This document shows, piece by piece, positions 414 to 64,000 of a stretch of DNA of 64,000 nucleotides. Where the stretch lies: NCBI GenBank assembly GCA_965178125.1, contig OZ237766.1, positions 1 through 64,000 of the forward strand. The letters are read 5' to 3'. The notes under the pieces were generated by a model, which had not been told where the DNA came from, did not search any database, and saw only the letters and a list, made by a program, of their open reading frames with translations. This stretch comes from Bilabrum cf. latius. Taxonomy: Eukaryota. Position numbers and translations under genes: made by a program. Position 1 is the first letter of the stretch. Every line of letters starts with the position of its first letter.

Positions 414-1994
414 ATGGCCGCCGCAAAGAGCTACAGCGTCAAGCACACCAGCAAGTCTCGCCCTGTCGTGGCCGCCCTGGCTTCAGGCGTCGACACGTCC
501 GCGGCCAAGCAGGTCCTACTGATCTCTCTCGTGGGCCTCCACCAAGACTGCGGGTTGCTCTGCGGGTCTACCGAGCACTACAAAGGGACCAAGAAGGCGG
601 GCATCAAGGCCTGCGTGGATGCCATCCTGGCGCTGGATGAGTCGAAGCTGCCCATCGTTTTACTGACCGCGCTTGACAGCAGGCTAGCACCTGGCCCATC
701 AGCCAGGAGCTCCAGCTCACCAGGCTTCCAGAAGATGCGGGAGCTCCTCACAGGCCTGCGCGAGAGCGGTTACTCTGTCACCAAGAACTCGTGGCTAAGG
801 GCAGGCATGGACGGTCTCCGGAAGTACTACAAGGACACAGTGAAGCTCGTCTGTGACTATGGAACCGGCATGGCGACAATGCGTGCTCGCGGAGGCATGG
901 ACGCTCTCTTCATAGACGTACTTGAGACGCCTGCTTATAAGCATGCCGGGGCTTCAGCAGGAGATCAAAGTAGTTCTTCGGGAGCCACTGCTGCCGCGCC
1001 GAGTGGCACGTCCCGTACGCGGAAGGGCATGCGCAGTATCATGGACGACGACGACGACGACGACGACGAGAAGGATGCCGCGGAGTACAGTGCCTACACG
1101 ACCCGGGGGGACCAGAGCAGAACGGTACCAGACGACTCAGAGTCCAGTGGAGCGGGGGAAAGCGAGCATGAGGGTGCCTCTGGCGAGTCCAGCGACTCTT
1201 CGACCGATCAAGCATTCAACGATCTTCTCAGAGCCAAGCGTGCGGCGGAAGCCAAGGAGAGGAAAAAGGCTAAGGCCAAGGCCAAGGCTTGGGCAAAGGC
1301 TGCGGGCAAGTCGACGGGCAAGTCCAAGGGCACGTCTAAGGGCAAGTCGAGGGATACAGGTACCCAACCGGCAGAACCGAAGGGCAAGAAGGCGGCTGGA
1401 GCCGCGCCTCGGGCTAAGAGGCAGCCCGAGCGATCGCCTGTCGTCCATCTGGGCAATGCCGGAAGAGCTCGCCGCGCCGTTGAACAGGAGAAGAGGGGAG
1501 CAAGTGGCGCAAGGAGTGGAGCAGCAGCATCACTGCATCGACAGGACTCTGAGGAAGATGAAGAGGAGACCGGTGGTCGGTACCAAGCAGCTGGAGAGCA
1601 GGACGACGACGAGGCTCCGATGGGGCTTATGCAGCAAGACGAGGAGGTGCAGCTGGACGAGGAAGAAGAGAACGAGGCCCAGAACCAGCAGGACGACTCT
1701 GACAACAACAGTGGAATGGAGGAGCCCGGCTTCACCCCCTAGCAGCGGAATCTGGTGGACCGCATCCTCGCTGCCTGCGATGACACCGCGATGGGCGTCG
1801 GCCGGACCATCGAAGACATGGTCGAGGACGTGGAGGAAACAATTGCAGAGAGGGACCACGGGTTGAGCACGCTCGCAGACCTGATGACGGCCCTCGAGCA
1901 GACGGTGAAAGGAGATCTCAATGCGGAAGCCGTGGACGCTGTGGAGGCGATCCTAGCAGCTGTCGGAGCGGAGCCTTCCTCCGATGACGAGTGA
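414..1994 (+). CDS. Element-encoded protein of unknown function (~526 aa with TAG=Gln): conserved N-terminal domain, D/E- and K-rich linker, acidic helical C-terminus
   Basis: ORFs 303-1742 and 1755-1994 are in one frame, split by TAG 1740-1742 and ending in TGA; paralog at 3797-5329 differs by many synonymous changes. Confidence 0.75.
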
Positions 1995-2272
1995 GAGGCA
2001 GTCAGGGGGAGTGAGAGCCAGCCAGGAGGATGGCAAATGAGGTCAGTGGCTACTGGGCCAGCTTGTGAGAGGAGTTTGCCAATGTGTCGGCCAGTGACCC
2101 GTTAAGACGAAGTGTTAGGAGCCAGGAGGCATTCTGATTAGTCTTGACTGTAAACCCATCAATACCCACATATCAAAGCGGTCCATCAAGCAAATACATT
2201 GCCGTCTTCACCATACCCATACTATGGACACATGAACAACACAATTCTGAAGATATGAACTTCACCATTGGT

Positions 2273-3025: not shown

Positions 3026-3087
3026 CGACAAATATTGAAGATGAAAATATTTTTTCCCCGACCCTGTCCCTGACTTTATATTAGATA

Positions 3088-3796: not shown

Positions 3797-5329
3797 ATGG
3801 CCGCCGCAAAGAGCTACAGCGTCAAGCACACCAGCAAGTCTCGCCCTGTCGTGGCCGCCCTGGCTTCAGGCGTCGCCACGTCCGCGGCCAAGCAGGTCCT
3901 GCTGATCTCCCTCGTGGGCCTCCACCAAGACTGTGGGCTGCTCTGCGGGTCTACGGAGCACTACGAAGGGACCAAGAAGGCGGGCATCAAGGCCTGTGTG
4001 GATGCCATCCTGGCGCTGGATGAGTCCAAGCTGCCGTCTGGCGTGCTCGAGTCGCTGAACCGTCGCCTGTACCCGGCTGCATCAACCAGCGGCTCCAGCT
4101 CGCCAGGCTTTCGGAGGATGAAGCAGCTGCTCATGGGCCTGCGCGAGTGCGACTACTCGGTGACCAAGAACCAGTGGTTCAAGGCAGGCATGAAAGGCCT
4201 GAGGAAGAACACCTACAACGAAGCGATCAAGTTCATCTGCGACTACGGAGCTGGGAAGGCCTCTGTGCGTGGTCGCGGAGGCATGCAGGCTGTCTTCCAG
4301 GACGTATTCGAGTTGCCGGCTGACGACTCTGCCGAGGATTCAGCAGGAGATCAAGGTGGTTCTTCGGGAGCCGCTGCTGCCGCACCTAGTAGTGCACCCC
4401 GTACGCGAAAGGGCAAGCGGAGTGCCATGGACGACGACGACGACGACGACGACGAGGATGTCGCGGAGCACAGCGCCACCACGGCCCGGAGGGAGCAAGG
4501 CGGGATGGATCTGGACGACTCAGAGTCCAGCGACTCATAGACCGAGCAAGCACTCCACGATCTTCTCAGAGCCAAGCGAGTGGCGGAGGCCGAGAGAAAG
4601 GAAAAGGCAAAGGCCAAACTTAAGGCCAGGACCAAGGCCGCGGGCAAGTCGAAGAGCAAGTCGAAGGGCAAGGCGAAGAACAAGGGTGCCCGATCAGCAG
4701 AGCCATAGGGCAGGCACGCTGAAGCCGCGCCTCCGGCTAAGATGCAACCCAAGCGATCGCCCGTTCTCCAACCGGCCTATGGCGGAGGAGCTCGCCACGC
4801 CGTTGAACAGGAGAAGAGGGGAGCAAGTGGCGCAAGGAGTGGAGCAGCAGCATCACTGCCTCGACAGGACTCTGAGGAAGATGAAGAGGACATCGGTGGT
4901 CGGTACCACGTAGACGCAGCCGAAGAGCAGGACGAGGATGAGGCTCCGATAGGGCTCGTGCAGCAGGACGAGGAGGATGGGGACGAGCTGGATGAGGAAG
5001 AAGAGAACGAGGCCCAGAACCAGCAAGACGACTCTGAGAACGACGGTGGAGTGGAGGACAACGGCTTCACCGACTAGCAGCGGCACCTGGTGGACCGCAT
5101 CCTCACTGCCTGCGATGACACCGCGCTGGGCGTCAGCCGGACTCTCGACGACATGGTCGAGGACGTGCAGGAAACAATTCAAGAGAGGGACCACGGATTG
5201 GGCATGCTCGCAGACCTGATGACGGCCCTCGAGAAGACGGCGGAAGGAGATCTCAATGCGGCAGACGTGGACGCTGTGGAGGCGCTCCTGGCAGCTGTCG
5301 GTGCGGAACCCTCCTCCGATGACGAGTGA
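3797..5329 (+). CDS. Element-encoded protein, copy 2 (~510 aa with TAG=Gln)
   Basis: One frame with TAGs at 4538, 4706 and 5075, ending in TGA; colinear with 414-1994. An in-frame upstream ATG exists at 3635. Confidence 0.75.
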
Positions 5330-9432: not shown

Positions 9433-9434
9433 CC

Positions 9435-12612: not shown

Positions 12613-15600
12613 TTAACCCCGCCCGTTACTGACAGACCCAAGGTAGTCATCCTGATTTGCCCTCCGCTTGTCTCGCATGGCAGCCTTGGCAGCGGCACCC
12701 GCCTTCTTGCCGATCCTGTACCGCACGTCAGACCCCCGAGACACAAACCTTCGTCGCCATGCCGCAAATTCGGACTCCAAAGACGATGATGTACCAGCTC
12801 CTGTCCCCTGGCCTCGACTACCTGACTGCAAACGAGACGCGTGCTGCTCTGCAACCGCGTAATCCGCCATGTCTCCCCGCACGTCACCGGCCCACTCCAC
12901 CAGCAGCTCTTGCCCTGCAAACACCCGGCCCGGCAAAGGTAGGCGACCCATGGGCCCCTGCAGCCTCACTGGGGCCTCGGCATCCACCGGTGGATCACCG
13001 CTGCGCAGCGCTGCCACCACGGCTTGGTCCTGCCCCGGGCCGGTAGCCACGCTCAGCGAGGTCGGCAGTGCCCTGCCCCCCCTCGACACGGCCGCCCCCA
13101 GTCCATCCATGAGCACCCGCACCACCACCGCTGCTGCCTCTGGGCTCAGACCCCGCACATCCAGCAGCACAGGGTCGTCGCCCACTCGGCTGGCCATGTC
13201 ACCGTCCATGGCTGCATCCAGCCGAGCCCACACTGGGTCCCGCCCCGGGGAGCTCGCCGGCCCGCGGCCTGGCTGTCCGACCCCGAAAGCGAGACGACTG
13301 AGCAGCCCAGCCCCCCAGGCTGCCTCCAGCACAGACAACACATGCTACTGCCGACCTGCCTGCACCGCTAGCTCCAACAGCTCCACCGCCTGCGCCTCGC
13401 ACTCCAAGCGCCTCGATCCACCGTCAGCTGCCATTGCCATCCCACCAATCTCTAGCGAATGTGCCCCTGTGGAGATCGCTTCCTGTGCAGCAATCCTCAG
13501 TTCGTCTGCCTGATGCCCGCCCAGCCCTACCCCGCCGGCACCCACCGCCAGTGCGGCGCTCCCGTCCAGCTCTGCAGTCCGTGCCCGCGCCAGTGCCTCC
13601 CTGCCGGCGGCAACCAGCACTCCACAGAGCTTGCCCACAAACTCGCTGCTCAACGCACTCACAGACCCACTAGCCACTGCAGCCTCCAGCAGCGCAGACG
13701 CAGCCTCGACGCGCTCGGCAGGGGAGCGAGGGTTTGCCTCAGCCGCCTACGGAGGGGTGCCGAGTCCCTGCCCTCTCCGTCTAGTCAGTGCACCGGTACC
13801 TGCACCTCCCAGCCGGGCATCCACTGCGTCGAGTGGAGGCAGAGAGTTACTCGACCCGCCTGCACTTGCCGTGACACCTTTCCCAACGGCTCCTGCCTCG
13901 CCCTCTAGCTGCTCCAAGAAACCGCACGCCTCTGCAGCTGCCTCCAGCAAAGCAGAAGACACGGGCAGCCGCATCATCTCCCACGCCTCAGCTACGCTCG
14001 CCACAACTGCACCGTCTCTGGCAAGCGCACCTGCTGAAGCCACTGCCTCCAAGTGCGCCAGCAGCTGGTTGCGTTCTATTGCTGGAGCGATGGACGCAAT
14101 GCCGTGCTGCTCGAGCCGGTGAAGAGTTTTTGTCGCATGATCCACGACTCGTGCGGGTGGGGCTCTTACGGACTTCTCTCCAGTGGCTTGCGCCACTGCA
14201 AGCATAGAAAGCACATGCGCGGCACGACGGGCCTCGGCGTCTGCTTCCACGAGTGGCTCGGGTGGCATGCACAGCTGCAGCACTCTGCGAGCCAGTCCCG
14301 ACCACTCCTTCGGCTGGATCGCCTCGCGGGCGCCCTGCATTGCCCTTCCCTGCGCCGACCTCGCCGCCTCGTCGTGGGGCTACTTGCCGCCGGTGAGGGC
14401 GCGCAAGCCTGCGCCCCGACCTGCGGCCAGCGAGGGGTCCGACCATGCCGCTGCTCGCTCCGCCCTCACCACGGCCAGCGCCGCACGGCTCTCGGGGCCC
14501 ATGGCTGGCCCTGGGCTCGGGAGAGTTACTGCATGCGCTGGCGAGACCGGCCCACTACCGATGGGAGCTGATGTTCCGAGAGCGCCAGCCACATCGCTGG
14601 CATGCCTGGAGAGCAAGCTACGCATCGCTAGTGCGGCGGGGCCTGTGCTTGCGCTCGCAGGCAGGCGGGGCAGAGAGGGGGCAAGCTGGTGGGCCTGGGC
14701 TGCAGACGGCGCCCATCGCATGCGCTGTGCATCTGGCGTGGCTAGTTCCCCTATGCTCGCCAGCTGGGGACTCGGGTCCGTCGGTTTCAAACCAGAGCTG
14801 CCTTCCTGCACGCTTGGCAGCAGATCTTGCGGACCCAGAGTCCCGGGGACGTGTCCTCGCGCAAGGGCAGGGACTGGTAAGGCCGGCACCACTGCGTCAG
14901 GCGGTGCAAAGGCGCTGGCTTCATTTGCGGCTTGCATGGCAATCGACTCCATGCGGGTCAGCGGAGGTTCGCTGGCGCCATCAGTGATCGGGACCAGCTC
15001 ATCGCTAGTCGACAGGACCGCCCCGGGTGCCCTCACTTCTTGCAATGGGATCGACTGGGACACTTGCGATGCAGCATCCCTCGTGACTGATGTGGGCGAA
15101 TACGCAGCAACAAGAGGGTTTGAGCTGGACCCGTTGCTCGACGATGCGCCTACAAATCGTTCACTCACTCCGCCTGATTGCGGGGCACCTCGTGATGACG
15201 CATCAGCGCGATTCAACCTGCCTTGTTGTCCGGCCTGGATCTTGGCCGGCGTCTTGGTCTGGCGGCCATCTGCCACTCCTCCACCGATCAGGGCCGCCTC
15301 ACTGTGGGCAGGCCATGCAGTTGGGTCGTCATCTCTACCTAGAGGTGGCAAGCCCGCTTCTCGTGCGGCTCTTTCTGCCCTGCGCATCATGGACCAGTGC
15401 CCGTCGGGAAGCGGCTCCACTTTTGCAGCTGCGGTCTCTTCGTCTGCTCCATCTGCTCGAGCGGCTCGACGGGCAGCTCTCACCCGCCGAGCTCGCGCCT
15501 CTGCCACTGCACGCAGCTCCCTGGCCTGCTCTCGGGCATACATGCCGGACGCAAGCCTGCCGATGCTTCCGGCATCGTAGGGATCCGGTGTCTTTCGGCG

Positions 15601-18252
15601 AACCACTCGAGTGGATGACCGTTGCGGTGCATCTACTGACTTGGCACTGGTTGGACCGTCCACCTGCTACATAGAACCCAGCTGCAGCAGATCTGCCAGG
15701 GTGCCCCGTCCGTCGCTCGCTTCTCTCACAGCCTTCTCTGCACCTTCCAGTCCCGGGGCAGCAGCAGCTGCCAACTACCGGTGTGCCATGCCGAGAGCAA
15801 AGCCGCGCGTCTGCACAGCTCGTTCGCGGGCAGCCTCTTCAGCACGTTGTCTCCAAGCCACAGGAAGGAATGATAGCGCCGCTGCAGCCGCCTATGCAGC
15901 TTGGTCAGCAGTTGGAAGCAGCGACAGGACGGTCCGCGCTGCTGCCGCTTGATCGACACCAATGACCTTTGAAGCATGGCCGGGGGCCATGGTTGTTCCA
16001 GCGATCAGCTTCGTCTCTTTGCGTTGCTAAGCTCCACCATAACCGCGATGCGCGGCTACACCGGCAGCTGCAGAGACGCCCGCCTGCATCTCATCCCACG
16101 ATGCCCACTGCCCACTCTCAGCAGCAGCCCGAAGCTCCTTCACGAAAGCACCCCGAGATTCGAGTTGCAGTCGGGCAGCTGCCCAGTCGCATCGCATCAT
16201 CGCTCGCACGCAATCAGTCAAGGCGTCTGCGCTGCGAGAGGCAGCCAGACGGGCTGCCCGTTGGTTGGTCCCGGGCTACATGTTGCTCAGTGGAAGCAGC
16301 GATAGCGCACGAGATGCCGCCCGCGTTGCACTGCTGGCTGCATCACCATCTGGGTGTGACCCAGTCGTCCTCAGCAGGCCAGCGGTTCGGCCTAGAGCGG
16401 CGTGCAGTGAGTCTGGGGACAGCTGCGGGAGTCTGTGAGCCGCCAGTCGCCCCGAATCAGCTGCCCCCAGCAGCGCCGACCATGATGGGCCCAGAGCCTC
16501 TGCGCCCGCACTCAACTCGGCGCTGTCTTCTCCGCGGAACATCAAGAGCCCAGACCCGGTTTGTGTCCGCCGGGAGAGTCTGGCCCATCGCTGGGCATCG
16601 TGCGCAGCCTCGACGATGCTGGTGAGCGCCGTGGTGGACTCAAGGCGGGCACCAGATGCCGCGCACACGCGCAGCAGCCATCGAAGCGCGGGAGCATCTG
16701 CCTCCGAGCATATGCGGGCCAAGACAGACGCCCATGCAGAGCCCAGGTCGCGCTGACACCGTTCGGCTACCGCTTCGCCCCCTTGCTGCACGGGCGGGGC
16801 GGTGGTCAGTCGAGCCGCCGCAGAGGTCGCTGCCATGCCTCTCGCACTGGAGAGAGTTTGTCTCTGGGCGGTTTGGCCAGGCTACGGCAGCTCTAGGATG
16901 GGCGCTACTGCAGCCACCACGTCTTCCAGAGGCACGAGCGGCGAGGCAGCTATGCCCTGCACTGCCGCTCGCACCGACCGAGCGACTGCAGGCGATGCAA
17001 GTACACGAGATCGAACCTCAGAACCAGGCCTAGCAGCGTCAGTTACTGCACGGAGAACTTGGCGGGGCAGCGCAGTGTTTCCAGCTTGATGTGCTAGGGA
17101 AAGCACGGCGTGGATGGCAGGCTCCAGTGCCTCCGACTACCCTAGGGCACCAGGAGCACCTGGATCGCGCTACTGCATCAGGTACCAGCGCCAGATGGCC
17201 AGCAAGGGCACGCTGATAGCATCGAGCACTGGACTATACGGGCCAGCGTCTCCTGTCCGCTCGACGGCTGTTGCCATGCCCGACACAAGGACCGACAGCC
17301 GAGAAAGCAACTCAGGGGTGCTTTCAACGTGCGTACCCTCGTCCAACGTAGTGCTCGCTAGTTGCCTGGATATAGAAAGTACCATCTCTACTGATTCTGT
17401 CTGCTGCCGCACCCCGGCCGCTGTGTGAGGGCCTTCCTGTAAGGTACCCGCCATTATCCATGCCCGAGCGAGCCGACTGTTTCCAGCCTGCATGCCTGCC
17501 TGCAGCAGAATTTCATCAAGAGAGGAGCTGATGCTAGTATTTGCTCCCTTGCTGATACTTTTGAGAGCAGCGGACACAGACTCGGCCCACAAGAGGCCCT
17601 CAGGGATAGTCTCATGCAGGAGGGCAGGACGGCCGAGGAACCAGCCGCCGAGCTGCGCTTCTCGACAGCTGAGAGCCAGCAAAGCAAGTGTAGGTCGATT
17701 AACCACATAATTTAGGGATGTACTGCATGCATTCTTTGCTGCAAGTGCCGCTTGTACTGCGACTGTCTGGTGCCACCGGGCATCTGCCTCGCTAGCTCGA
17801 TGTGCCAATGCAGGCGGCTGCTATACTCCCTTGGAGGCCCGCAGAGAGTCTAATAGACTGTACATAGCAATACTAGGCGAACGAATGTGATGCTCGCATG
17901 CATCTGCAAATCGCTTGGCCCATATTGACCTGCCACCGTAACTTCCCTGCGCGGCATTCCATGCGGCATCCCCAATGCTCTGTTGTGCAGAACCACGCCA
18001 AGCGCTCGTCCGGCTCGCGAATGAATTCTGACACCTGCGTTGACCTCTGAGTGTTGTTTTACGTGTTTGGAAGCTGATGGAGCCATGTAGGTTGCAAGTC
18101 GTCGAGCTGCTTGCTCTCAGCTGCAACTGTCGCCGGGTTGCCCGACTAGCTTGATGCAGTATCAAAAATTGCAGGCTTGAGCGGAGTCTAATAAAGGCCT
18201 GGGCCATATCCTCGGTCCTACGCAGTTGCTAGTGGCGAATGAGAGCATTCAT
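12613..18252 (-). CDS. Large alpha-helical protein with C-terminal Smr-like domain (PPR-SMR-like), up to ~1879 aa
   Basis: Nine listed ORFs share one frame; 13 in-frame TAGs and no internal TAA/TGA; LLDVRGLS..AAAVV..LSVATGPG resembles Smr; stop TAA. Start codon uncertain. Confidence 0.7.
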
Positions 18253-18329
18253 GCTGCCAGTGTTGTGTTCGTCTGTTCATCATCACACGCACTCGGGCTG
18301 CAAGAGCAGCTTGCCGCTCAGTCAACGCC

Positions 18330-41859: not shown

Positions 41860-42153
41860 TGAAGTGCGCGTCTGTTGATCACTGAGCCTATGCATGTTTT
41901 ACGATTTGGTGCGCCATTGTGGGTGCACGTGGTGCATGCTGTCTTGCTGGCAGGGGGCCAGTGGCAGTGGATGCAGGCCTTGCAGTTGGTGGCCCGCTGC
42001 TCAGGATTCCTAGAAGCCCACTACTTGTCAAGTATTGCACCCATCGTATGCTTACAACCACAATCGTAGTATCGAATCGGATCCACAGGCGGTCGGCCCC
42101 CGTGCCACCAGCAGAGTCGGTGTCAGGCACCCCCTCTGGAAGTACCTCGGCAC

Positions 42154-46500: not shown

Positions 46501-46957
46501 GCCGCGCATGCCCGTGGATGGTTGCCTGTACACGGTGAATCCAATCGCGATCAAGAAGGAGCTTGACGTGTACACGGAGAACAAGCGGCTGCTGCACTTC
46601 GTGGACACGGAGGACTTCGGGACCGTGGGGATGGTGGCTGTGGGGGCCACTGTGGTTGGCTCGATCCACATCACGGTGGAGGACGGGTCCAAGGTGCGCA
46701 AGGGGGACGAGCACGGGTACTTTGCTTTCGGGGGGAGCACCGTGCTGCTGCTGTTCGAGCCGGGGAGGGTGCGCTTTGACGCCGACCTGCTTGAGAACTC
46801 GTATGAGCGCGGTCTGGAGACCATCGTCAAGGTGGGAGACAGGATCGGGCAGGCGGTGCCTCCGGGGGTCGCAGATGGGGGCAGGGAGGCGGAGGGAGCC
46901 GCGGCAGGAGGCGCAGCGGCGGCGGCTGCTGCTGGTGGGGAGGAGGAGGGGACCTGA
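43562..46957 (+). CDS. PSD2: Type II phosphatidylserine decarboxylase (MGC N-terminus, C2 domain, EF-hands, PSD domain); introns 43676-43771 and 43951-44187
   Basis: C2 motifs SDPYV..NPVFNE; EF-hands DGDKDGRLEKEE and DADGSGALEESE; FNEFFYRKLK, SPADCR, RLAPQDYHRWH, FGGST; TAGs at 43640, 45137 and 45767. Confidence 0.93.
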
Positions 46958-47063: not shown

Positions 47064-48443
47064 TCATTTCCCTCTCTTCCCCGCGCCCCCGCTCGCTGCA
47101 CCACCTGCGCCCCCACCGCCCCCGACAATGCCGGCGGCCTGCAGTGCCGCCCTGGCCGTGTTGGAGATGTGTGCGAACCGCTTCGGTCCCAGCAGCACGC
47201 CCCCGTACCAGCGGGTCACCACCACGCACGCGTCCTGCGCCCCCGCCAGCTCCAGCAACGATGACATCCTGGCGCCAGCCCCGCTCTCCCCGTCCTCGTC
47301 GTTGTCGCTCACCACCACCGGTGGATCGGCCACCTCCCCGCCCTCGGTCCTCCGTCTGAACCTGAAGGCGAGCATGTTGTGAGTGGCCTTGGCCACCCGC
47401 TTGTCCTCCAGGAGACGAGCCAGCACGGCGCGCACCTCCGCCTCACTCGTCACACGGGCCGCGAATCCCACGAACTCCGACTTCCGGTCTATCAGCGATG
47501 GACCCTTGTGGATGGTGGGGCATTCCACCACCACTTCGCCGGTGCTGGTGCCGGTGCTAGCGCTGGCTGATTCGGCCGCAGCTGTACCCTCTGTGCCTGC
47601 TGCAGGTCTAGCGCTAGGTGACCCGTCTCCGTCTGAGACAGCCAGACTCTTTGCATCCCCGCTGGCACTGGCACTGCCAGCGCCCTCGCCGGCCCACGCC
47701 TCCAAAGCAGCCTACCGCACTGCCTGTGCCGCTGCAAGCACGTGTTCCTGGGCCGACTGGCACTGCAGCTGAGAGCTCAGGCTGCTGCCAGCTGCACCAG
47801 TGCAAGTCCCAGCATCAATCGGTGCCGTTCCCTCCTCTACACCGCTGCCAGACGCACTACCAGTGATTCCCTTGCATGTGCCTTTGCCATCTCTATCAGC
47901 TTTTCCCAGCGCCCCCTGTGCAGGTGGTACCCTCACCCAACCATCCTCCAGGCCAATTGGCACGCCAGGTGTGGCCGCCCCGGGGCCTGCCGCAGACCCA
48001 GATGCAGTCCCACCAGGCTGCTGCAGCACGCCCCCGCGCACCTCCAGGGATGTTTCCCACGCTTTGGCTCGCAGTGCGGCGAGCGCCTCTTCGTTGATCC
48101 CCTTGCCAATGAGCATGAGCGAGGCACCAGCCTCAGGGTATGCCAGCGGGATATCAGCGACCATCCGCACTGTTCTGGTAGTAAGCCCACTACTGTTGTC
48201 GCATAGAGAAATAGTCAGTCTGTATGACGACAGCTCGCTGCTTGCAAATGCAGCCAGAGCGGCGTCTGGATCGCTTCCGATCGTTCGCATTGCATGCAGC
48301 AGCCTCCTGGGCTCGGGTGCCGATACTCGTTCAGCCCCTAGGCTGGATGTGCCTTCGAACCCGTCGCAAAAGCTACCCCCAAACGTTGCTTCAAGCGCTT
48401 CGATCTCATCAGATTGCCTCTTTATCTATTCCGATGTCGACAT
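47064..48443 (-). CDS. IMPACT: IMPACT/Yih1 family protein (RWD + UPF0029 domains, ~459 aa)
   Basis: QSDEIEALEATF, YP motif, DRKSEF, ATHNMLAFR, DEDGESGAG, VVVTRWYGGVLLGPKRF; TAGs at 48426 and 47712; stop TGA. Confidence 0.92.
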
Positions 48444-48674
48444 GGTCGGGTGGATACTCTAGTCCCGTGACCGACCACTGGCAGATTGCTCTTGCCGCGC
48501 TCTTCTGCGCAGCTTCCTCGCTTCCCGTCTCTACTTTCTGGCATCGCAATCCATTCGCTCAGGTATACACAGCCCTTGATCTCAGATGAGCCTCGAGCGA
48601 GGAGTTGCTCTTCGTTGAACGTTCGTTTGCGGGAGCGAACCTAATCGAGCCGGCTCGCCCGACCTCCAATCAGC

Positions 48675-51614
48675 ATGGCTGGTATCGTATGCCTGCATTT
48701 TCTTCTTTTTATCTCGTTAGTAATTGTTTCCGTGAATGGAGCGTTGATGACCGATGAAGGCAAGCCAGTGGCCACAGACGGATACTTTCTTGACGTGGCG
48801 ATGCGTCTCTCGAAAAGGGCTGGCTCTGATCGCGTGGTGCTGCTTTAGGGTGCAACACGCTAGATTGGATCATCATCAAGTTGCATTGCATAGACAGCTG
48901 CTCTTGCTGCCTGCTCAGTTGCCCACGCCGGCGATGTTAGTCATTGCAGTTCTGAGCAGCGGGCGTACATGCGCTGCAAGCGAACAGGAACGCCAGTTCA
49001 CGCAGTGGACCCATTTGTCTCGCAACCTGCCACTGCTAGTCCAGCGAAAGGATTGACAGAGACCGTCGGTGCGTCGGACTCGCAGCAGCCCGCAGTTCCA
49101 AAGCAAGTAGCCCCCGAATCACCAGCCCAGCAGGAGCAGGCAGCGGCCTCCATGTACATGGGCGCTGTCGAGGATGCGGATCAACGCCTTGCCGTGCTTA
49201 AAGGCGCGCTTGGACAAGGGGGCATGCGCTCTCAAGACCATTTGCAGGACGCGCTTGCGGCCGTGGAGGGGCATGGTGCCTCTGCGCGATTCGCTGGAGC
49301 TGCCAGGGGCAGGAGCAGGAGCACGGCGGGTGCCTCTGCTGCCGGTCAGAGCAGAGCCTAGCACTCTGTAGCAGACGCGCAGGGCATCCGGGAGGCCCGC
49401 GCCCGAGAAGCGGTGTTGTCCAAGGCAGGCGCAGCCGCGACCGACACGGGGGTTGCAACCGGGCTGGGGTCCTCTGCAGTCTCCGCTTGCGTGAATCTAG
49501 GGACGTGCCCGCCCGCCGTCTTCGGCAAGCCGCCGGCCACGGGCCCGCCGGGTGACCCCCCGAGCGCGGGCGCCCCCCAGCTGACTGTGTCCATGCCCGG
49601 GATCGGTCCCCTGGGCCCTAACCTCAGCGGCATGGCGGGCATGATCATAGGGGCTCTGATTCACGGGATTGTGGGGCCCGAGGTGATAGAGGCAGTGCAG
49701 CAGTTCCTGGCCAAGATCATGGCGCAGATGCCCATGATCCTGCGGCAGGTGCTCATCGAGGGGGGCAATGCACAGGCACTGGAGATGATCCAGCAGATCC
49801 TCGCGCGGCTCCCCGACGTGCTGGCGCTCATCAAGCGCATCAAGGGGCTCGTGCTGGCCATCCTGGCACAGGCTGAAGCGGCCGTAAGGAGGGCCCTGGC
49901 TGCCGCTCGCATGGCGCTGCTGCTGGCCCAGGAAGCCGCCAGGCGACTCCGGGCTGTGCTGCAGCAGCTGCTGGCCGCCATCCGCGCCGCCCTTCTAACT
50001 GCGGCTGCCCTGGTCGACGCCGGGCCCGGGGGGATGGAAGCGGCTGGACGTGTGGCCCAGGGCGCTCTTGGAGGCGGCTCTGGTGTCCTGCTGCCCGCCT
50101 CCGTGGAAGACGCAGACCGGCTGGCCCGTGCGAGGGCTGATGCAGAGGGCAGCGATGCACTGGCGGGGGCGGGGCTGCAGGGAGGTGGGCCCGGCGGGGG
50201 TGGGTATGGAGGGTCGGAAGATGGCTTCCGGCTGGGGCTCGACGAGGAGGGGCTGCGTGAGTTCGGTGCGGCGCTGGGGCCCGCTGCGCTGGAGGCTGCT
50301 GCCCGCGGTCTGCTCCCGGGGGTGGGTGCTGAAGGGGAGGGGCGGGTGGACGTGGGGCGGGCGAGCGAGGCGGCGGGGCGCATGCTGGGGCAGGTGAGGG
50401 GGGCGCTGAAACAGGCGGCCACGGAGGTGGTGCGGCGGGTGCAGGAGGCCGAGCGGGCGCAGCGTGCGCTGGCGGCAGCGAGGGCGGGGGCGATGGCGGC
50501 GGCAAGGCGGGCTGAGGATGCTCGCCAGGAGGCAGAGGCGGCGCAGCTGTTTCTGGGCGGGAGCAGGGGCACGCGGGGAGGTGGTGAACCTGCGGATGCA
50601 TCGGGTGACGGCATGTCCGGCCCTATGGGAGGAGGGGAGTCCAATGGGTCCCTGCCTCTCAGGGTGGGAGGCGTGTCACCGGGCACTGTGCTGCCCGGCG
50701 TGGCATCGTCTGGGCTGGGGCACTGGGACCCCAAGGAGGCGGCAGGGGTGGCTGATAGAGCCACGGCTGCCTCTGTAGATGCGCTGCGGAGAGGAGCGGA
50801 TGCCGCTGCTGAGGCTGAGCACCGGCTGGCAATGGCTCGTCTGGTGGAGCACGCCAAGGGCGGGGTACCTGCCTTCGATCGGCGGCAGCAAGCGGAGGCG
50901 GAGGGAGGCGGGGATCGAACAGAGGAGCAGAAGCAGCAAGCAGGGACTATCGCAGGATCCGCCGCACTGCTGCAAGCCATGGCAGGGGCAGGGGCAGGGG
51001 CACAGCCCGAGCCGGCGCCTCCCCGCGGTGGCGTGCTTGCGGAGATCATCCATGCAGAGGCCTCCAAAGCAATCACCTCGGCGGTTTTGGAGGCGGCGGG
51101 CAAGCAGGCGAGGGCAGTGGCAGTGCCTGCCCTGGTAGACGCAGGGGCGGGGCCTGCGGCAAGGGCCGTGAGGGATGATGCTGCCGCTGCGATCGCGGAG
51201 GGGCTGGCTGCGGCTGTGCCTGCCGCCGCTGCTCCCGCCCTTGCCGAAGCTCTCGAGCGGCAGCTGCCCCCCGTGCTGCGAGCCTCCGTGACCCGCGCGC
51301 TGACCCACCTGCTGACCCGGGCGGTGACGCACACGCTGACGCAAGCCCTGCCCCCCATCCTGGGGGCTCGCGGGGGGTTCGGACCTAGTGGGCCTGGAGG
51401 GTTATGGGAGGAGGATGGGGTAAGTGGGGGTGGTGCAGAGTCGGGGATGTAGCCTTTGAGGGGCGTGCCCGGGGACGTGCGAGGGAGCACCCGCCGGTCG
51501 GCCTGGCTGGCGGCGGAGGCAGCGTCGGACACGATGGCCAGTCTCGCGGTTGGGGGGGTGCCAGAGGGTGCGGAGGGCGAGGGCAACGGGGGCCAAGGCA
51601 GCCAGGGAGGTTAA
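48675..51614 (+). CDS. Hypothetical secreted Ala/Gly-rich protein (~979 aa) with a twin CX9C motif
   Basis: Signal-peptide-like MAGIVCLHFLLFISLVIVSVNG; single frame through 5 TAGs to TAA 51612. Confidence 0.7.
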
Positions 51615-56387: not shown

Positions 56388-57877
56388 TCACAGCCCCTCG
56401 AGGCTCTCTGCATCCACTGACCTCACCACGCACTTGCCCTTGTCCGCCCTGCGGCTGGGCACTCCGGGCCCCGGCCTAGGTGGGCCCAGCCACGAACACC
56501 GAGGGATGCTGCTCCCCTGCCGGGCGGAGGGCCCCGCGGACCCTTCAGCTCCCGCCCCGAAGAAAGCCTGCAGCTGGAACTGTCCCGCCAACTCTGCCGC
56601 TTCGTCCTCGTCGTCATCCCACTCGACGGCTATGCCCAGACCTCCCGCCTTGGAGTCGCTTTCACCCGACTTGGTGATGCTAGACGGGGCACCCAGCGCC
56701 TGTTCCTCGTCTTCATCATCGTCACCATCATCGTCATGATTGTCCCCGTCCTACCCGTCTCCGCCGTCCATTGGCGCCTGGCCCCCCTTGCCCCTCCCTT
56801 TCTCCATCTCTCTGCTCACACTCACCCCCGCCGCCTTGGCAGCCGCCTCCCGCGCCCCCTCCAGCAACACCCCCACAGTGCTCCACGAGAAGCGCGCCAG
56901 CCGCGGATACCCGAACACAGGGTCTACTCCCTCTCTGATCCACCGCTTCGTGTCAGGGTCTCCGGGGTAACCGCTGCCCAGGGGCTGCCCGTCCTTCGCC
57001 AGGGGAAACGCATGTGACGAGTGGAATGGCGCGGACGAAGGCACAGACTATGATGCCGGCGATGAGGTAGAGGCAGAAGCCGAGGACAAAGAAGAGGCAG
57101 ACGAGGACGAGGACGAGGCAGAGGCAGGCACGCTGGGGGCAGTGTACCCGGGGGGCAGGTACCCGGGCTCAGGAAAAGCGTAGTCTACCATGGCTGCATC
57201 CCTGGTCACCTTGGCGCAGATGCTGGCCGCACCCACCACAGGAAAGTTGGCGTCTGCTTTCTTCTCCACCGTGAAGCGCGGCGCCGGGTACCTGCCGTTG
57301 CGGAACCTCCTCTCTAGCAGGGACTTATACCTGTCTGGATCCCCCACTGTGTCTACTATCACATGAGCCACTTTCACTCCGCGCTCCTGCACGGCCCTGA
57401 CCATGCCCTCGGCCGAATCGAAGGAGAGCGCATTGAGGCTGTAAGGGTGTCTGCGGAGCATGTTGGCGCCAATCTCCCGCGCAGATATAGAGTGTACCAC
57501 GTAGCCGATCCTAGAGCCTTCGCCTTGCAATCGGGTGAGCAGGGTGCTCCGCTTTGCGTGTGTAAGCGCTTTGCTGTCGTTGAATCCAAGCTTGCGGATG
57601 GTCGCGTCGTCGCTTTCCCGCCAATACGCAGCTCCATACACCATTGGTCCTGCAAGGTGGCAGTTTACGCATGATATGCGTGCGTTCTGAAGATGAGGCT
57701 GCATTGTCTGCGCTCTACATGCCCGTGATCCTCACCAAGTACTGGCCCGCGCCCAGCCTCATCGATCCCAAGAACGACGGAATCGCCTCCACGGCATGTA
57801 TCGGGAACCGCACTAACCGTCAGCATGGAACCGTATTCATTATGTGTAATGATAGCATCTCCTGCCTCGGATTCCAT
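56388..57877 (-). CDS. RNASEH2A: Ribonuclease H2 catalytic subunit A; intron 57650-57735
   Basis: [45 protein letters not shown]; conserved [17 protein letters not shown] lies beyond TAG 57048; stop TGA. Confidence 0.95.
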
Positions 57878-57991
57878 GGAAGCCACCGTAAATATTACTG
57901 CAGAATCTGGGTATTTTTTAAATTGTGACGAACGTTCGCTTTGCTCACCGAAGGGGGAATGTCGTGGAAACCTCTCAGTGCTGGACCCGAT

Positions 57992-60244
57992 ATGCGAGCA
58001 ATGTATCTCTCGCGACAAGTATTGCTAGCATTTGCCATATATATGTGCGTTCCTCGGTGCAGTGCTTACAAGTACGAGCTCACAAGGATGGGACTGTCTC
58101 TGAACCACACGTCGCTTATACTTAGCGAGGGGCCCATGTACGCCCATCGCAAGTCTCCGTTCGCGAAACAGGACAGTTACATCAGCATTGAAATGATATC
58201 TAGCTTTGATACAGTAGACGGGCTCCCAAGGAGTCCTGTTGACTCTTGGCCGGGCGTGTATGTCCTCTTTATGGACGAGCACACCATCGAATATGTAGGG
58301 AAGCCGGCTGGTGCGCTGCAAGACGCGCTCTACTACCCAGCTACAACAGAGGTGGAAATTTGCTGTACGCAGTCGCTCTTTATGGCTGGTTAGTGCGGCG
58401 GCTCCACCCCGGGCCAGCCCATCGTGAGCGTGCCTGCAGATGTGGCTGTCTCCGATGGCCCCGTCGTCTTCTAGGTACCCGTGCAGCTCATGGCGGACGG
58501 CAACCAGAGACGAATGAGTGCCCCGAGACGTACATCGTACCAATCCCCGCGCAGGGCCTAGGAGGGCGAGTATCACCCCCTGGCGGACCTCCTGCAGCAG
58601 GCCCCCTCCGTGATGGTCGACGAGATCCAGCCAGTCGGACAGGTGCACTCGCTCAACCTGCAGTCCAGCATGCGCGCTGCTGTGACACGGGCGGGCGTGC
58701 AGGAAGCCCTAGTGGCACTGTGCCCCCAGCCCGCCATCTCCTCCTCCTCCTCTCGCCGGACCCGCCTGCTCCAGGGTACAGGCCCCTCCTCCCCGGCCGC
58801 ATCAGACGCCGGCTCGGGGCTGGTACTGCAGGGCGCGATTACGTTTGCGAATCCCTATGGGTTCCTGCCAGCCATTCGGATGGGCGACTGGCCCGTGGCA
58901 GGGGCGCTCACGATGGGGTATGCAGTGCTGCTGGTGGCATTCGGGGTGGTGTGCGTGCTTGCGTGGAGGCAAGGCAACCTCCTGCAGCTGCACATACTGC
59001 TGGCGGTGCTGGCTCTGGCAGGGCTGCAGGAGGCTGCCACGCGGTTCGGGATGTTGAACCAACGCAACATGAGCGGCAATGCCCCGTGCTGCCCTCCCAC
59101 CCCCGATTTCATCGCCTCCGAGGTGCTGGGAGTGGCCAAGCGGGCGGCCTTCAGGGGCGTCTTCCTGGCCCTGGCCCTGGGCTATGGCGTGGTGGTGACC
59201 TCATTGCCACGCACCACCTGGGTGGGGTCGGCCGTGATGCTGGCGGTCTACAGCGGTCTATCCCTTGGGTCCAACCTCGCGGCTCTAGCGACGTACACCA
59301 CCCGCGGGGGGCTCCTCGAAATCAGCGCGCTCATGCTGGACTTCTGCATCCTGGGGTGGACGTACGTCACGTTCATGTCCACCATCGAGGCGCTGCATGA
59401 GGCCGGGGAACAGGCCAAGAGGGACATGTACCTGCAGCTGCTCGGCGTGATGAGAGCCTTCGGGCTGTCGTGGATCTCTCTCGCTCTCATGGTGCTGCTG
59501 GCGCGCACCATTCCTTCCCTGCTGCCGTGGAGGTTCCTGTTCATGCTGGACGCGTTCTGGGAGATCATGTATCTGGGGCTTCTGGCGGCCGTCTGCTGGA
59601 TCTGGCTCCCGGGATAGGCCACGGCGTAGTATGCTCTGTATCAGCAGGCCATGGGCGAGGAGGGGGAGGGGCCCGATGTGGCAGAGGCTGCCAGTGGGGG
59701 CGAGGGCGAGGGCGAGGGCGAGGGCGAGGGCGAGGGTCCAGAGGGGCGGGCTGAGCGAGGCAGGGGCAGGGGTCCGGGGGCCAAGGTCCGGGCTGTAGAG
59801 ATGGCGGAGCGGGCTTAGGATGGGGATGGGAATGGAGATGGGGCGGGTGAGATCGCGATCGGTGGGGACTCGAGCGATTCGGAGTCAGAAGTTGGTGGGA
59901 GGGGCACGGCCCGCGCTCCAGCTGCTCCTGCTACTTCTGCTGTGGCTGTGCACGGGGCCAGGCGAGAGCTGGGGCCTTCCATGGGTCGGTCTGATGCGCT
60001 GGAGGTGCGCAGTACGGACATGGAGGAGGAGTTGCGCGAGGCGCCTGAGGGCAGGCTGGGGGAGATTGACCTCGGAGTGCTGGACAGCGAGGGGAGCGAG
60101 GGCGAGGGCGAGGGGAGCGAGGGCGAGGGCGAGGGTGGGAGGGGGGAGCTGCAGTTCAGCGGGCAAGCATCTCTAGGAAGGGAGCAATAGGCTGATGAAG
60201 AAATCCCCTCGCTGCAGCCACCCAAGCGCAGTGGCCGCAGGTGA
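57992..60244 (+). CDS. GPR107/TMEM87 (lung seven-TM, GOST) family protein (~750 aa)
   Basis: Signal peptide, CCT..G[TAG]C, FANPYGFLPA, several TM helices, LALGYGVV, WIWLP..YA; stop TGA. Alternative ATG at 57959. Confidence 0.85.
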
Positions 60245-60342
60245 CGAGATCATCTGCCGCTTCACCCGGAATGCCATCAGGCGTCAGGCGGCAGTGCGTT
60301 CACCTCAACTTTTGTGCAATCTCGCGTTTCTCGGGGGATTGA

Positions 60343-63300
60343 ATGGATGACCATCAACTTCTAAATGAACTTCTTCACCTGGCAAAGCAGCCTGAGAGGA
60401 AAGTATCAGACGGCAAAGTATCAGACTAGCAGTAGATCGACGATGTCGCCGATTGGCTAGATCGAGGCGCGGAGCGAGTGGCACTCGCGAGCCAATCTAG
60501 CGGCAATTCCGTTGAAAATGCATGGCTTCAGGCTGCAGCTCATGCGGAGTTAATTGAAGACGATGCAGGGGCTGCCGTAGCAGCAGCAACAAAGCGGCTG
60601 GCAACTGGCATCCCCACTGCAAGAGGAGCGCTGAAGCCCATTGGTACCCGTGCCTCTCACCTAGCTCGGGAGTTGGATTCCTTGCAGTCTCCCATTGGTG
60701 ATGTCGACCATCTGTCGCGGAGTTTGCTCCCGGCAGACCGTGCGGCCACCCAGCAGCAAGGCGCGCAGAGCGGCAGCCTGGATGCGTAGACCAGGGCGCT
60801 GAGTGCCCTCCGTAGCGTGTTAGAGGATGTTTCGTTTGATGTTGGCAGCATATCTGAGAGTGCGTCTAGAGAACGGGCAAGCACTCACGCTAGCGCTGTC
60901 TCCGCGTCCGGTTTGCCGTCCCCTGCGCAGCAGGCCGACAGAGCAGCACCTGCCCCGTTTCAAGACAATGCCGCCGGCGGCCCATCCGGCGATATCATGC
61001 ATAATGATCCCGAAATCCGCATCCCAAGCCGCGCACGCCGCCTGATTCTCGCATCTGCAGCCGGGGTGGGTGCTGGAGATTCGCAGGGTCCACTTCTGCC
61101 CCTGCGCGCCCTGGCGGCACTGAGCTAGCGCCTGCAGGGGCAGCGGGCTTTGCTGCGGCGAGTGGCGCTCTGGCCAGATGCCCACAGACGGGCCCAGGCC
61201 GCGATCGATGCCGTTGAGGTGCTCGATGCGGCTGGTCCTGGTGCTGGTGCTGAGCGCGGGCAAGAAGTCCCAGCCGCAGGGCGGGACGGTGAGGCTGTGG
61301 AGCGGGCTGTGCGGCTGTGTGGGTGGGTCGGACTGGCGGCTTGCTTGGCTAGGGACTGCGTGGCGATGCCAGGCGCGGCAGGACGGTATTCTGAGCTGAA
61401 ATCCCTGGGTCTGGCGGGGGATGCGGCCCTGCAGCAGGCCGTGCAGGGGGTGGTGGGACGAGCCGTTGCTGCACCTGCAGACTCAGGTGGAGTAGGTGGG
61501 GAGGAGGGTTAGGGGAGTGAGGGGGGTTAGGGGAGCGAAGGGGGCACACCCATTGGTGTGGAGCAGCTGGGTGGGGGGAGTGAGGGGGGCACATCCATTG
61601 GTGTGGAGCAGCTGGGTGGGGGGAGTGAGGGGGGCACATCCATTGGTGTGGAGCAGCTGGGTGGGGGGAGTGAGGGGGGCACATCCATTGGTGTGGAGCA
61701 GCTGGCTCGGGCCATGGGTAGATCGGCCGTGCTGGTGAGTGCCGCTGCAACTAGGTCAGACATGGACGGTAGTCCGGTGCTACGGTTGGCGCCGCTGGAT
61801 GCATGTGCCTCTGCGGCTTGTTCCTTGGGGTTTGCCATTGGAGCAGCACTGACTGGGGTGAGCGGCGGAGAGCATCGTCTGGCAGGGGTCCTTGCAGCGG
61901 CGGTGCGCGGGTGCTGCGAGGGGGCCGTGAGCGGCGGGGGCCCGCAGTCATCGCAGGGGGGGGAGGAGCTGGTCGTGGGCGAGAATGAGCTGGCAAGTAT
62001 CGAGACGGGGGAACTGCGTGTGGGCGAGGAAGAAGGAAAGCAGTCCGTGGAGGAAGCCGGGTCACTCGCTCGATTGGCGAGCGAGGGGGGGAGGACGGGT
62101 GCGCTGCTGGGCTGGTTTGCGGAGGCAGGTCGCGATGCAATCGGCGCGGGGGCTGGCAGCAGGTAGGCTGTGGCAAGGGAGGCATGGGAGCGGGCGGCGG
62201 GTTTGCCCACCTCGGTTGGCGCTCGAATGCATGCGGTGCTGCGGGCTATCTCGATGGCGTGGCAAGATGGCGACGATGGAGACACGTGTTCCCTGGGTCA
62301 GGGCTAGTGGCAGGAGGACGTGCTGCGGGGGGTCTGCTTCCACGTCGGTGCAGCGCGCTCTAGTGCTATCAGTGCAGGCATCGGGGCCCTGCGCGCTGCG
62401 GTGGAGTAGTGTCTGAATGGACTGGCAGGGGCAGGGGCAGGGGCAGAAGTCGACGGTGACTCGGCTCGTGCGACGATAGAGGCCATGCAGGGGGTGTTGG
62501 GGGCTAGTGAGGACATACAGGGGAGACCTGGGCACACAGCGACAGCCGTATCTGCAGTGCTCGGCGAGGCCGTGGGGCGAGAGGCGGGGCGGGCGCTGGC
62601 TGTGCTGCAGCGCGCGAGTGTGGGAGCAGGTGCGGCTGATGCGGGTAGCCAAATGGTGAGTGAACTGCAGTGTGATGCTGCCGCTCGAGCAGAAGAGGTC
62701 CTGGAGGCTGCCCTGGCGGAATGGAAGGCGGCTGGTGCTGCTGCTAGGCAGCCCTCGGGTGCATCGCATGGTGGTGCAGGCCAAGGTCGGTCCAGGCAGC
62801 GCCGCAGCCGAGTTCCTGGGGGTGTGTCGGTGGCGGTGCTTGGGGAAGCCGCCAGTGCCGCTTCCGGGGCTAGAGAGCAAGGGGCTAGAGAGCAAGGGGC
62901 TAGAGAGCAAGGGGCTAGAGAGCAAGGGGCTGGAGAGCAAGGGGCTGGAGAGCAAGGGGCTGGAGGCACGGTTGCTCGCACTGGGTGCCCGGCTGGAGGC
63001 ACGGTTGCTCGCACTGGGGGCCCGGCGAAGGAGGACGCGGGGGGCGAAGGTGGTGGGGGGTAGTAGGAGCAGCGAGACGAGGAGGAGGGGGAGTAGGAAG
63101 AGGACTGGATGGATGCGGCGGAGAGGGAGGCTGCCAGCGGGGCAGGTGCATCGCACGATGGCACAGAGCTGAAGATCCTACCGCTTGCTCGCAGGGCGGC
63201 GCTGGTCTCATCCGGGCTTGCCCGCGCGAATGCAGTGGTCGGGGTGCTTGGGCCGTTCTGCGCGTGCCTCGGGCATGGCGGGGGTCACAGAGATGGCACT

Positions 63301-64000
63301 GGCCCTGATGGTGCTGCTGCTCCTGGTGGGTCTGTAGGCGCTTGGTTACGGGCTGGGGTCGAGGAAAGCGAGGCAGGACCTGCCAAGGGGCCTCTGTTCT
63401 CTGTAGACAGGGGAAGCGCCGAAGGATTCCGCCGGTGGTGGCCTGTCCTGAGGGTGGGTGCCGTCGGGGGCCGCATGCGCGAAGAGGTAGAGGACGAGGC
63501 AGGTGGCTACGGAACTCTTCCGATGGTGCTAGCGCAGCTCGAGGCAGGCCAGCGCCTAGGGGCCCGGACAGGGGGCGAAGGTGAGGCAGCCAGGCGCCTC
63601 ATTGGTGGGGACAGGACTGGTCCCGGGGGCGAGGGAGGGTCATAGGAGGGGGCACAGGGGGGGGCTGGGAATGCACAGCTTCAGCTGCCCTCCATGGAGC
63701 AGCTGTCGGTCTGGGTCGCACAGGGGGCGGTGTCCCATGTGACGAGTGCGCATTCGTCACATGAAGATGCTCCGCCTGCGAGTATCCGGGAGCAGGTCAA
63801 GGTGGGAGGCAGGCTGGCGGTGAGCGAGCTGGCGGCGGCGCTGGGGGGCCCGCTGCTGGACGCGGCTTGTGCCTTGGACTTGGACTTGACCCGGGTGACG
63901 AGTGGGGGCTCACAGCAAAGCGTGGCATCTGCTGCGCTGGGACAGGCGCTGGTGGACGTGGCGGGTTGGCTGGAGCCCGTCGCGAGCGGGCGGCAGCTGG
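60343..64000 (+). CDS. Large hypothetical Ala/Gly-rich protein, runs off the right edge (>1200 aa)
   Basis: Six listed ORFs share one frame, separated only by TAG; no TAA/TGA before the window end. Confidence 0.7.
61540..61705 (+). repeat. 45-bp coding tandem repeat (GVEQLGGGSEGGTSI, ~3.5 units)
   Basis: Direct, near-identical, frame-preserving repeats. Confidence 0.9.
62866..62960 (+). repeat. 15-bp coding tandem repeat (GAREQ/GAGEQ, ~6 units)
   Basis: GGGGCT(A/G)GAGAGCAA repeated. Confidence 0.9.

Follow-up and report, generated by a model that had tools for sequence, protein, structure and literature searches.

Probable decoding of UAG as glutamine, with UAA and UGA as stops, in the nuclear genes of a putative bicosoecid stramenopile

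Introduction

UAA and UAG nearly always change meaning jointly in nuclear genetic codes, and the lineages that split the two codons are natural experiments on discrimination by eRF1 and on how reassignment begins. The 64,000-nt stretch of DNA analysed here (the window, always meant at its full length) raises the question of how TAG is decoded in its nuclear genes. According to the original prediction for this stretch, UAG is read as glutamine while UAA and UGA remain stops, and fragments of single genes lie in one frame and are parted by TAG only. Homologue columns, transcripts and a diverged relative bear this out: the nuclear code of the window very probably has UAG for glutamine and UAA and UGA as terminators, which is the pattern of NCBI table 15.

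TAG at glutamine positions of conserved proteins

Homologue columns across distant species were obtained for two genes of the window:

42028..43065, minus strand: prolyl 4-hydroxylase (P4H) mRNA, with ATG at 43065, TGA at 42154-42156 and poly(A) signature at 42028
42744-42920, minus strand: P4H intron of 177 nt, holding one TAG (42820-42822)
44063..46957, plus strand: main exon of a phosphatidylserine decarboxylase (PSD) gene, coding for C2, EF-hand and PSD domains; two TAGs (45137 and 45767) and a TGA end
43673-43768 and 43951-44187: upstream introns of the PSD gene, from transcript contigs

The spliced P4H coding sequence holds exactly one TAG, at 42478-42480. The best 150 P4H matches were collected by scanning 1.84 billion representatives in full with HMMER, and 149 of them cover the TAG column in a profile alignment. 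Glutamine occupies this column in 146 of the 149, serine in two and methionine in one, and the flanking residues are glutamate (148/149) and tyrosine (148/149). When single proteins are compared, the site faces histidine in the Bacillus anthracis P4H and glutamine in the Chlamydomonas P4H.

The second PSD site (TAG at 45767-45769) is opposite glutamine in six of the seven nearest homologues and opposite serine in the seventh. Across the 120 homologues listed, glutamine is the commonest residue of the column (25 of 88 non-gap positions, with lysine in 12, arginine in 10, other residues in 41, and 32 gaps). Two proteins of close relatives, P0013 (97% identical) and P0133 (93% identical), read through the P4H and PSD TAG sites with glutamine. 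P0013 comprises 582 aa, compared to the 964-codon frame of the window, and starts just past the upstream TAG; P0133 comprises 150 aa. The shortness of P0013 and its beginning after a TAG suggest that TAG was taken for a stop when both proteins were annotated, and hence that a standard glutamine codon is present at these sites in the relatives.

Codon context points in the same direction. Glutamine codons make up 8.5% of the neighbours of TAG (two positions on either side), compared to 10.9% around glutamine codons themselves and at most 5.3% around the codons of any other residue. The run TAG CAG TAG CAG TAG is found at 27424-27438, inside a 3243-codon frame for a poly(A)-polymerase (PAP)-type protein, and PDB alignments of this protein place a glutamine (Trf4) at aa 1848. 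For three further proteins, alignments were uninformative: the PDB alignment of the IMPACT-family protein does not reach its TAGs, no orthologue of DCAF7 is among the PDB matches listed, and the homologue search for a GOST-family protein was empty at E ≤ 0.001, so that its seven TAGs are without column evidence. Together, the alignments and the codon context show TAG at what are, by comparison, glutamine positions.

TAG in transcript contigs

Four sequencing runs (X1, X5, X6 and X8, taken as Logan contigs and found via positions 38301-48300) were compared with positions 40301-60300 of the window. In X1, a 37,855-nt contig is colinear with the window over 40301-59687 without a single difference, so that an independent DNA contig gives no CAG in place of any TAG of this stretch and the check for assembly errors that had been proposed came out in favour of the sequence. 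The contigs of X5, X6 and X8 skip seven segments with GT..AG or CT..AC ends (41422-41518, 41636-41755, 42744-42920, 43673-43768, 43951-44187, 55041-55254 and 57649-57734), whereas X1 skips none. The GT..AG introns span 86-237 nt. From these splice joints, and not from the run listing, in which no RNA set is named, we infer that the X5, X6 and X8 contigs are of transcript origin. One X5 contig has a loose end of 24 T at 42028, which is the poly(A) signature expected for the minus-strand P4H mRNA.

Of the 29 in-frame TAGs in the compared region, 16 are covered by the X5, X6 and X8 contig pieces shown, with no differences, and the remaining 13 lie outside these pieces (529 further pieces exist). 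No other letters are listed anywhere in the transcript comparison. Two of the genes are covered as follows:

48645..51614, plus strand: 989-codon frame with five TAGs and a TAA end; 5/5 TAGs covered by contigs of the spliced runs, without differences
57929..60244, plus strand: GOST/Lung-7TM-family seven-transmembrane protein with seven TAGs and a TGA end; 5/7 TAGs covered by X5, X6 and X8 contigs

One of the 29 TAGs (42820-42822) is intronic, as it lies in the 177-nt intron of P4H. This intron was revealed by the transcript contigs only: the frame-based gene model crosses it, since 177 is a multiple of three and the segment is open when TAG is read as glutamine. At the covered sites TAG is retained in the mRNA, neither spliced out nor edited, as judged from contigs and not from raw reads. 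Removal of the TAGs from transcripts had been named as an outcome that would speak against the original prediction; it was not seen at any covered site, and the one intronic TAG among the 29 belongs to a genuine intron.

Some side observations concern the runs as such. In terms of organism codes, the spliced, window-identical runs X5, X6 and X8 belong to B and D, and the DNA runs to A. Short coding repeats rich in GAG and GAC (60091-60136 and 57078-57125) draw, from each of the four runs, contigs of very great depth that match in part, and are probably low-complexity acidic tracts common to many genes. Depth is 100-200 in the last bin, and a 3-nt deletion variant is present at 60114.

Shared code in a diverged environmental relative

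When metagenomes were scanned with DCAF7, the search led to L001, an environmental contig of which 12.7 kb out of 22.2 kb were used. Its GC content is 53%, and its DCAF7 DNA is 79% identical to that of the window. L001 carries orthologues of DCAF7, of a CutA-like protein, of the giant PAP-type frame and of a Rab-like GTPase (at 7422-8276 on the minus strand of L001, with 173 of 278 residues identical). The relevant genes of the window are:

25111..34842, minus strand: 3243-codon frame with a PAP-type nucleotidyltransferase domain at aa 1844-1925, 46 TAGs and a TGA end
35021-35806: small GTPase, of which L001 carries a paralogous gene
36048..37055, minus strand: Rab-like small GTPase with three TAGs and a TGA end
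38310..39515, minus strand: DCAF7/WDR68-type WD40 protein without TAG, ending in LLRV followed by TAA

The PAP frame of L001 (2129 codons, open-ended) contains 34 TAG and neither TAA nor TGA in frame, compared to 11 and 17 TAA and 45 and 47 TGA in its two off-frames. TAG accounts for 27% of the glutamine-type codons in this orthologue. In the window the share is about 15% (123 TAG, 541 CAG and 174 CAA in 15,785 codons). With shares of this size, the reassignment is of long standing and has become fixed across a clade.

In order to compare TAG positions between the two genomes, four orthologue pairs were aligned with TAG masked as X, and a site was counted if at least half of the flanking residues (eight on either side) were identical. 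Among the 26 well-aligned pairs of a TAG with a sense codon, the partner is a glutamine codon in 15 (CAG in nine, CAA in six). Genuine glutamines are conserved at a rate of 0.60 in the same alignments. We then scored the TAG partners with a substitution pattern specific to each candidate residue. Glutamine had the best log likelihood (lnL), 33.7 units ahead of histidine for the 26 filtered pairs. Without the filter there were 62 pairs, 18 of them with glutamine, and glutamine was again best, by 36.6 lnL units over serine. Judged from the 34 in-frame TAGs of its PAP frame, L001 has the UAG code in common with the window species. The enrichment of glutamine in TAG columns that the original prediction called for is found in P4H, in the PSD homologues and in the L001 pairs alike.

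Gene order is not the same in the two contigs. DCAF7 of L001 is inverted relative to the GTPase and giant PAP genes (28000-39500 in the window), and a CutA-like gene lies on its other side.

Reading frames interrupted by TAG

The window has a GC content of 61% overall (53-66% in 4-kb bins), and its longest frame under the standard code comprises 874 aa. Reading through TAG extends frames to 3243 aa (46 TAG), 1887 aa (13 TAG), 1223 aa (5 TAG) and 1219 aa (13 TAG, open at the window end), and yields further frames of 989, 980, 964, 771 and 751 aa. Reading through TAA leaves the longest frame unchanged at 874 aa. Frame length was nevertheless rejected as a stand-alone criterion, because reading through TGA lengthens frames as well in DNA with 61% GC: it produces 26 ORFs of at least 500 aa and 25 joins, fusing non-coding frames since GC-rich off-frames contain few stops. 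As frame joining is not specific, the case rests on homology, transcripts and the relative L001.

We selected 20 candidate coding frames (16,446 codons) as free of TAA and TGA and bounded by them. In frame, they hold 130 TAG, no TAA and no TGA; in off-frames 1 and 2, the counts are 136 and 112 for TAG, 46 and 48 for TAA, and 251 and 292 for TGA. The in-frame zeros for TAA and TGA are partly circular, as the frames were picked to be free of both. The equal frequency of TAG in and out of frame is not circular and gives no sign of TAG avoidance. Likewise not circular is the finding that known multi-domain architectures are broken by TAG alone, as the original prediction had it for gene fragments in general. 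For example, C2, EF-hand and PSD domains lie within one frame in which two TAGs are the sole breaks. Frames with Pfam domains also include a CutA-like protein and two small GTPases. For the 980-codon frame (51835-54777, plus strand), which has an Arg/Trp-rich stretch, the opposite strand is also open at length and the coding frame is uncertain.

Conservation past TAG is also seen within the window, in a pair of paralogues that flank the first of several telomere-type arrays:

414..1994, plus strand: paralogue 1, family unknown, with one TAG at 1740-1742 and a TGA end; the first ATG is at 414, as originally predicted
3797..5329, plus strand: paralogue 2, with TAGs at 4538, 4706 and 5075 (5075-5077) and a TGA end

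The two proteins are identical at 411 of 571 aligned residues. Their alignment pairs TAG with TAG at 1740/5075, TCG with the TAG at 4538 and AAG with the TAG at 4706. The sequence past the common TAG (1740/5075) is conserved in both copies.

TAA and TGA as stops

Among the ends of 19 complete frames and one RNA-supported spliced gene, TAA was found in three (12613, 38310 and 51614) and TGA in 17. The original prediction had counted three TAA ends, which stand, and 20 TGA ends, which become 17 among our 20 genes. Its count of TAG ends cannot be set beside ours, as TAG terminators are invisible in frames bounded by TAA and TGA; no gene in the window requires a TAG end.

TAA follows LLRV in DCAF7, and all of the 120 homologues listed end within three residues of this point. 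The orthologue in L001 likewise ends in LLRV-TAA. These comparisons support TAA as a terminator in both the window and L001. For TGA, about 126 nt separate the P4H stop from the poly(A) signature downstream of it, and the small spliced gene at 41241-41862 closes with TGA TGA.

Points weighing against glutamine

Several observations weigh against the assignment of UAG to glutamine or narrow its basis. Only two TAG sites lie in columns that are informative across distant homologues. Elsewhere, PDB alignments put histidine or arginine at aa 2058 of the PAP-type protein, and the Rab43 alignment places TAGs at variable positions, with arginine and leucine. Serine and lysine stand opposite TAG between paralogues 1 and 2. 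In the comparison with L001, 11 of the 26 pairs have partners other than glutamine (Glu 3, His 2, Asp 2, Asn 2, Lys 1, Leu 1), which is about the rate for genuine glutamine. The weakest-looking number in the data set is the count of TAG-TAG pairs between aligned orthologues of the window and L001, which is zero; such a lack of common TAG positions fits free synonymous turnover.

With regard to transcripts, the run labels are guesses ("RNA?", and "probably DNA" for X5), and low-level editing is possible because Logan contigs drop rare variants and represent the main transcript form only. With regard to stops, the role of TAA rests on three gene ends, one of them with a conserved C-terminus, and for TGA, C-terminal conservation lends weak support: among 135 P4H homologues, 28 have their end no more than three residues from that of the window protein. 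Three frames (18243-20063, 20231-23902 and 51835-54777) are without family match and may be mis-framed.

Alternative readings

The alternative that survives best, while still improbable, is an ambiguous code in which UAG would encode glutamine within genes and terminate some of them depending on context, as is reported for stop codons in Condylostoma and Blastocrithidia. Terminating TAGs would escape frames bounded by TAA and TGA, and the last TAG of the GOST gene, 17 codons before TGA, is compatible with either reading. However, no frame needs a TAG end, and the conserved end of DCAF7 is TAA. The in-frame frequency of TAG (130 in 16,446 codons) is similar to that in the off-frames (136 and 112), without avoidance, and both paralogues 1 and 2 and the orthologue from L001 show sequence conservation that continues beyond TAGs.

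We consider it very improbable that UAA is reassigned to glutamine as well (UAR as glutamine, the pattern of NCBI table 6), with TAA merely scarce owing to the GC-rich genome. It is true that TAA is the rarest stop triplet over all six frames (670, compared to 1244 TAG and 1497 TGA) and that three gene ends use it. Nevertheless, the window speaks against UAA as glutamine: TAA is absent in frame despite 46 and 48 occurrences in the off-frames, and it stands, in the window and in L001, after the LLRV of DCAF7, where the homologues end. Moreover, reading TAG and TAA together produces no joins between frames of at least 200 aa, and the largest frames gain only 23-41 codons.

Still harder to credit is UAG as a sense codon for another residue (Glu, His, Lys, Leu, Ser or Tyr). 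The non-glutamine partners at variable sites (Glu, His, Asp, Asn, Lys and Leu in the L001 pairs) could be taken in its favour, as could the histidine opposite the P4H site in Bacillus anthracis and the histidine or arginine at aa 2058 of the PAP-type protein. Against it stand the P4H column, with glutamine in 146 of 149, and the lead of glutamine by at least 33.7 lnL units. In addition, six of the 15 glutamine partners are CAA, which is two substitutions away from TAG, so that closeness by mutation is not enough to account for the pairing with glutamine.

Although one TAG of 29 (42820-42822) does sit in a real in-frame intron of 177 nt, the idea that the TAGs are assembly errors, tiny introns, RNA-edited sites or pseudogene lesions can be practically discarded. 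The independent X1 contig matches the window without differences, 16 of 29 TAGs stand unchanged in spliced contigs of three runs that come from at least two studies, the separate contig L001 has the same pattern, and decay would scatter TAA and TGA as well, none of which is in frame.

Source organism

Among the 120 DCAF7 matches listed, those with names are led by Cafeteria roenbergensis (62% identity) and Plasmodiophora (62%) and include many stramenopiles. We built a DCAF7 tree with IQ-TREE from 44 of the 120 listed rows, leaving out both nematode rows and, past P0310, every row without a name. In this tree, the window and P0283 join Cafeteria (ultrafast bootstrap 99, SH-aLRT 98), and the next to join is Bicosoecida sp. 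CB-2014 (100/97). In a PSD tree of 59 of 121 rows (the window, the first 28 matches and the other named rows), no named stramenopile groups with the window, whose closest neighbours with names are ichthyosporeans; the 120 PSD matches listed include none from a bicosoecid.

The DNA is nuclear, GC-rich and intron-poor, and its source is, from the DCAF7 tree, probably a bicosoecid stramenopile related to Cafeteria. The taxon is provisional, as it depends on one gene tree (DCAF7) that the PSD tree does not corroborate. The Cafeteria-type stramenopile guessed at in the original prediction accordingly has the backing of one tree and not of the other. Base composition, telomere-type arrays, genes in mixed orientation and the position of the window in the DCAF7 tree led us to set aside a ciliate, fornicate or trypanosomatid origin. 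For Cafeteria, the relevant passages of the genome preprint (10.1101/751586) give a GC content of about 70% and mention a non-standard code for the mitochondrion only.

Other genes and repeats of the window

The remaining genes and long frames are:

12613..18276, minus strand: 1887-codon frame with 13 TAGs and a TAA end, no Pfam family
41241..41862, plus strand: small spliced gene with introns at 41422-41518 and 41636-41755, no TAG, and TGA TGA at 41857-41862
47064..48581, minus strand: IMPACT/UPF0029-family frame with four TAGs and a TGA end
56388..57731, minus strand: main exon of RNase HII (H2A) with two TAGs and a TGA end; upstream intron at 57649-57734
60343..63999, plus strand: 1219-codon frame with 13 TAGs, open at the window end

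The small spliced gene and the minus-strand P4H gene are convergent, and their transcript 3' ends abut within a few bases (42028-42031). Within the last frame, a 45-bp tandem repeat (3.9 copies, 61530-61705) codes for a repeated 15-residue peptide.

Near its start (2273-9765), the window contains interstitial telomere-type arrays in a single orientation, together with other repeats:

3087-3584: (ACCCTA)83
7249-7728: (ACCCTA), 80 copies
8592-9435: (CCCTAA)141
2273-3024, 5689-7188 and 7778-8597: 155-bp satellite interleaved with the arrays
9435-9765: 37-bp repeat

One copy of the duplicated gene (the paralogue pair described above) lies between the arrays. The region looks like a subtelomere that arose by repeated duplication or healing, or like an assembly join.

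Possible mechanism

The decoding of UAG would be due to a tRNA-Gln with the anticodon CUA. As this anticodon pairs with UAG and not with UAA, it would explain why UAA is kept as a stop. In addition, the N-domain of eRF1 would have lost its recognition of G in the third position, or have it weakened. Both components are expected on precedent: the sections of PMC5304391 on mechanism describe the pairing of a CUA-anticodon tRNA with UAG and not UAA, expect changes in the eRF1 N-domain for effective reassignment as well, and draw attention to the substitution T32G within the GTS motif of eRF1 in Iotanema. The N-domain motifs listed in that paper are GTS, NIKS and YxCxxxF, along with positions 32, 55, 69 and 70 in human numbering. 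A search that allowed for introns detected no tRNA gene in either the window or L001; no Rfam family and no rRNA gene were found in the window, and the eRF1 gene is not in the window.

Novelty and meaning

We lean slightly towards an independent and unreported origin of UAG-only glutamine coding in a bicosoecid clade of at least two species, whose DCAF7 DNA diverges by about 21% and whose GC contents are 8 points apart. Considered by itself, the origin of the window's code is probably independent. In a literature search whose coverage did not extend to most subscription journals, no report turned up of UAG being reassigned in the nuclear code of stramenopiles, bicosoecids, Holozoa or Ichthyosporea; one may nevertheless have been published. 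As the runs are from 2023-2025, the data producers may already be aware of the code.

If true, stop-codon reassignment would be seen here for the first time in the nuclear genome of a stramenopile, and the postulated tRNA-Gln(CUA) and eRF1 change could be read from existing genome and transcript data and compared with the standard-code Cafeteria. The case is useful in that it lies outside ciliates and metamonads and comes with transcript-bearing runs, a diverged relative using the same code and, according to one gene tree, Cafeteria as a standard-code relative. Such a comparison makes it tractable to date the change and to find its molecular basis. There is also a practical side. Standard-code gene callers fragment these proteins, and relatives appear in databases as pieces (P0013, P0133), so that annotation and phylogenomics of the lineage need a setting with TAG as glutamine.

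Comparison with known systems

The pertinent sections of PMC5304391 and PMC11687900 name Iotanema spirale, Protocruzia tuzeti and, among phyllopharyngean ciliates, two lineages as having UAG alone reassigned to glutamine, so that the precedents named in the original prediction (Iotanema spirale and some ciliates) were correct. The former source also treats code 15 for Blepharisma as an erroneous assignment (PMC5304391). The window is most readily compared with the fornicate Iotanema spirale, another non-ciliate with the same three codon assignments, for which tRNA-Gln(CUA) and an altered eRF1 N-domain are predicted, as they are inferred here (PMC5304391). In Iotanema, UAA is the predominant terminator (PMC5304391), whereas TGA ends 17 of 20 genes in the window. 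The window also differs from Iotanema in its GC content of 61%, its TTAGGG-type arrays and a DCAF7 that groups with bicosoecid stramenopiles and not with metamonads.

The window does not look like ciliate DNA: it has 61% GC, (CCCTAA)n arrays, introns of the GT..AG type with lengths of 86-237 nt, frames that reach 3243 codons and its nearest DCAF7 relatives in Bicosoecida, and ciliate genomes as a rule differ in such features. The codes of phyllopharyngeans and Protocruzia tuzeti are nevertheless like that of the window, in that UAG alone has changed to glutamine and UAA stays a stop (PMC11687900). These ciliate cases show that the UAG-only change recurs independently, as far as the sections on them in PMC11687900 go.

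Codes with UAR as glutamine (table 6 type) are listed in PMC5304391 for many ciliates, Dasycladales, hexamitin diplomonads, oxymonads and Amoeboaphelidium. They resemble the code of the window in the change from stop to glutamine, probably by mutation of a tRNA-Gln anticodon, and differ from it in that UAA is a sense codon there, whereas TAA terminates here. Other nuclear reassignments of UAG alone are described in PMC5304391 and PMC11687900 for the rhizarian exLh (leucine) and for Scotinosphaera (serine). As in the window, UAG is uncoupled from UAA in both; the difference lies in the amino acid, as the lnL comparison and the P4H column reject leucine and serine here in favour of glutamine.

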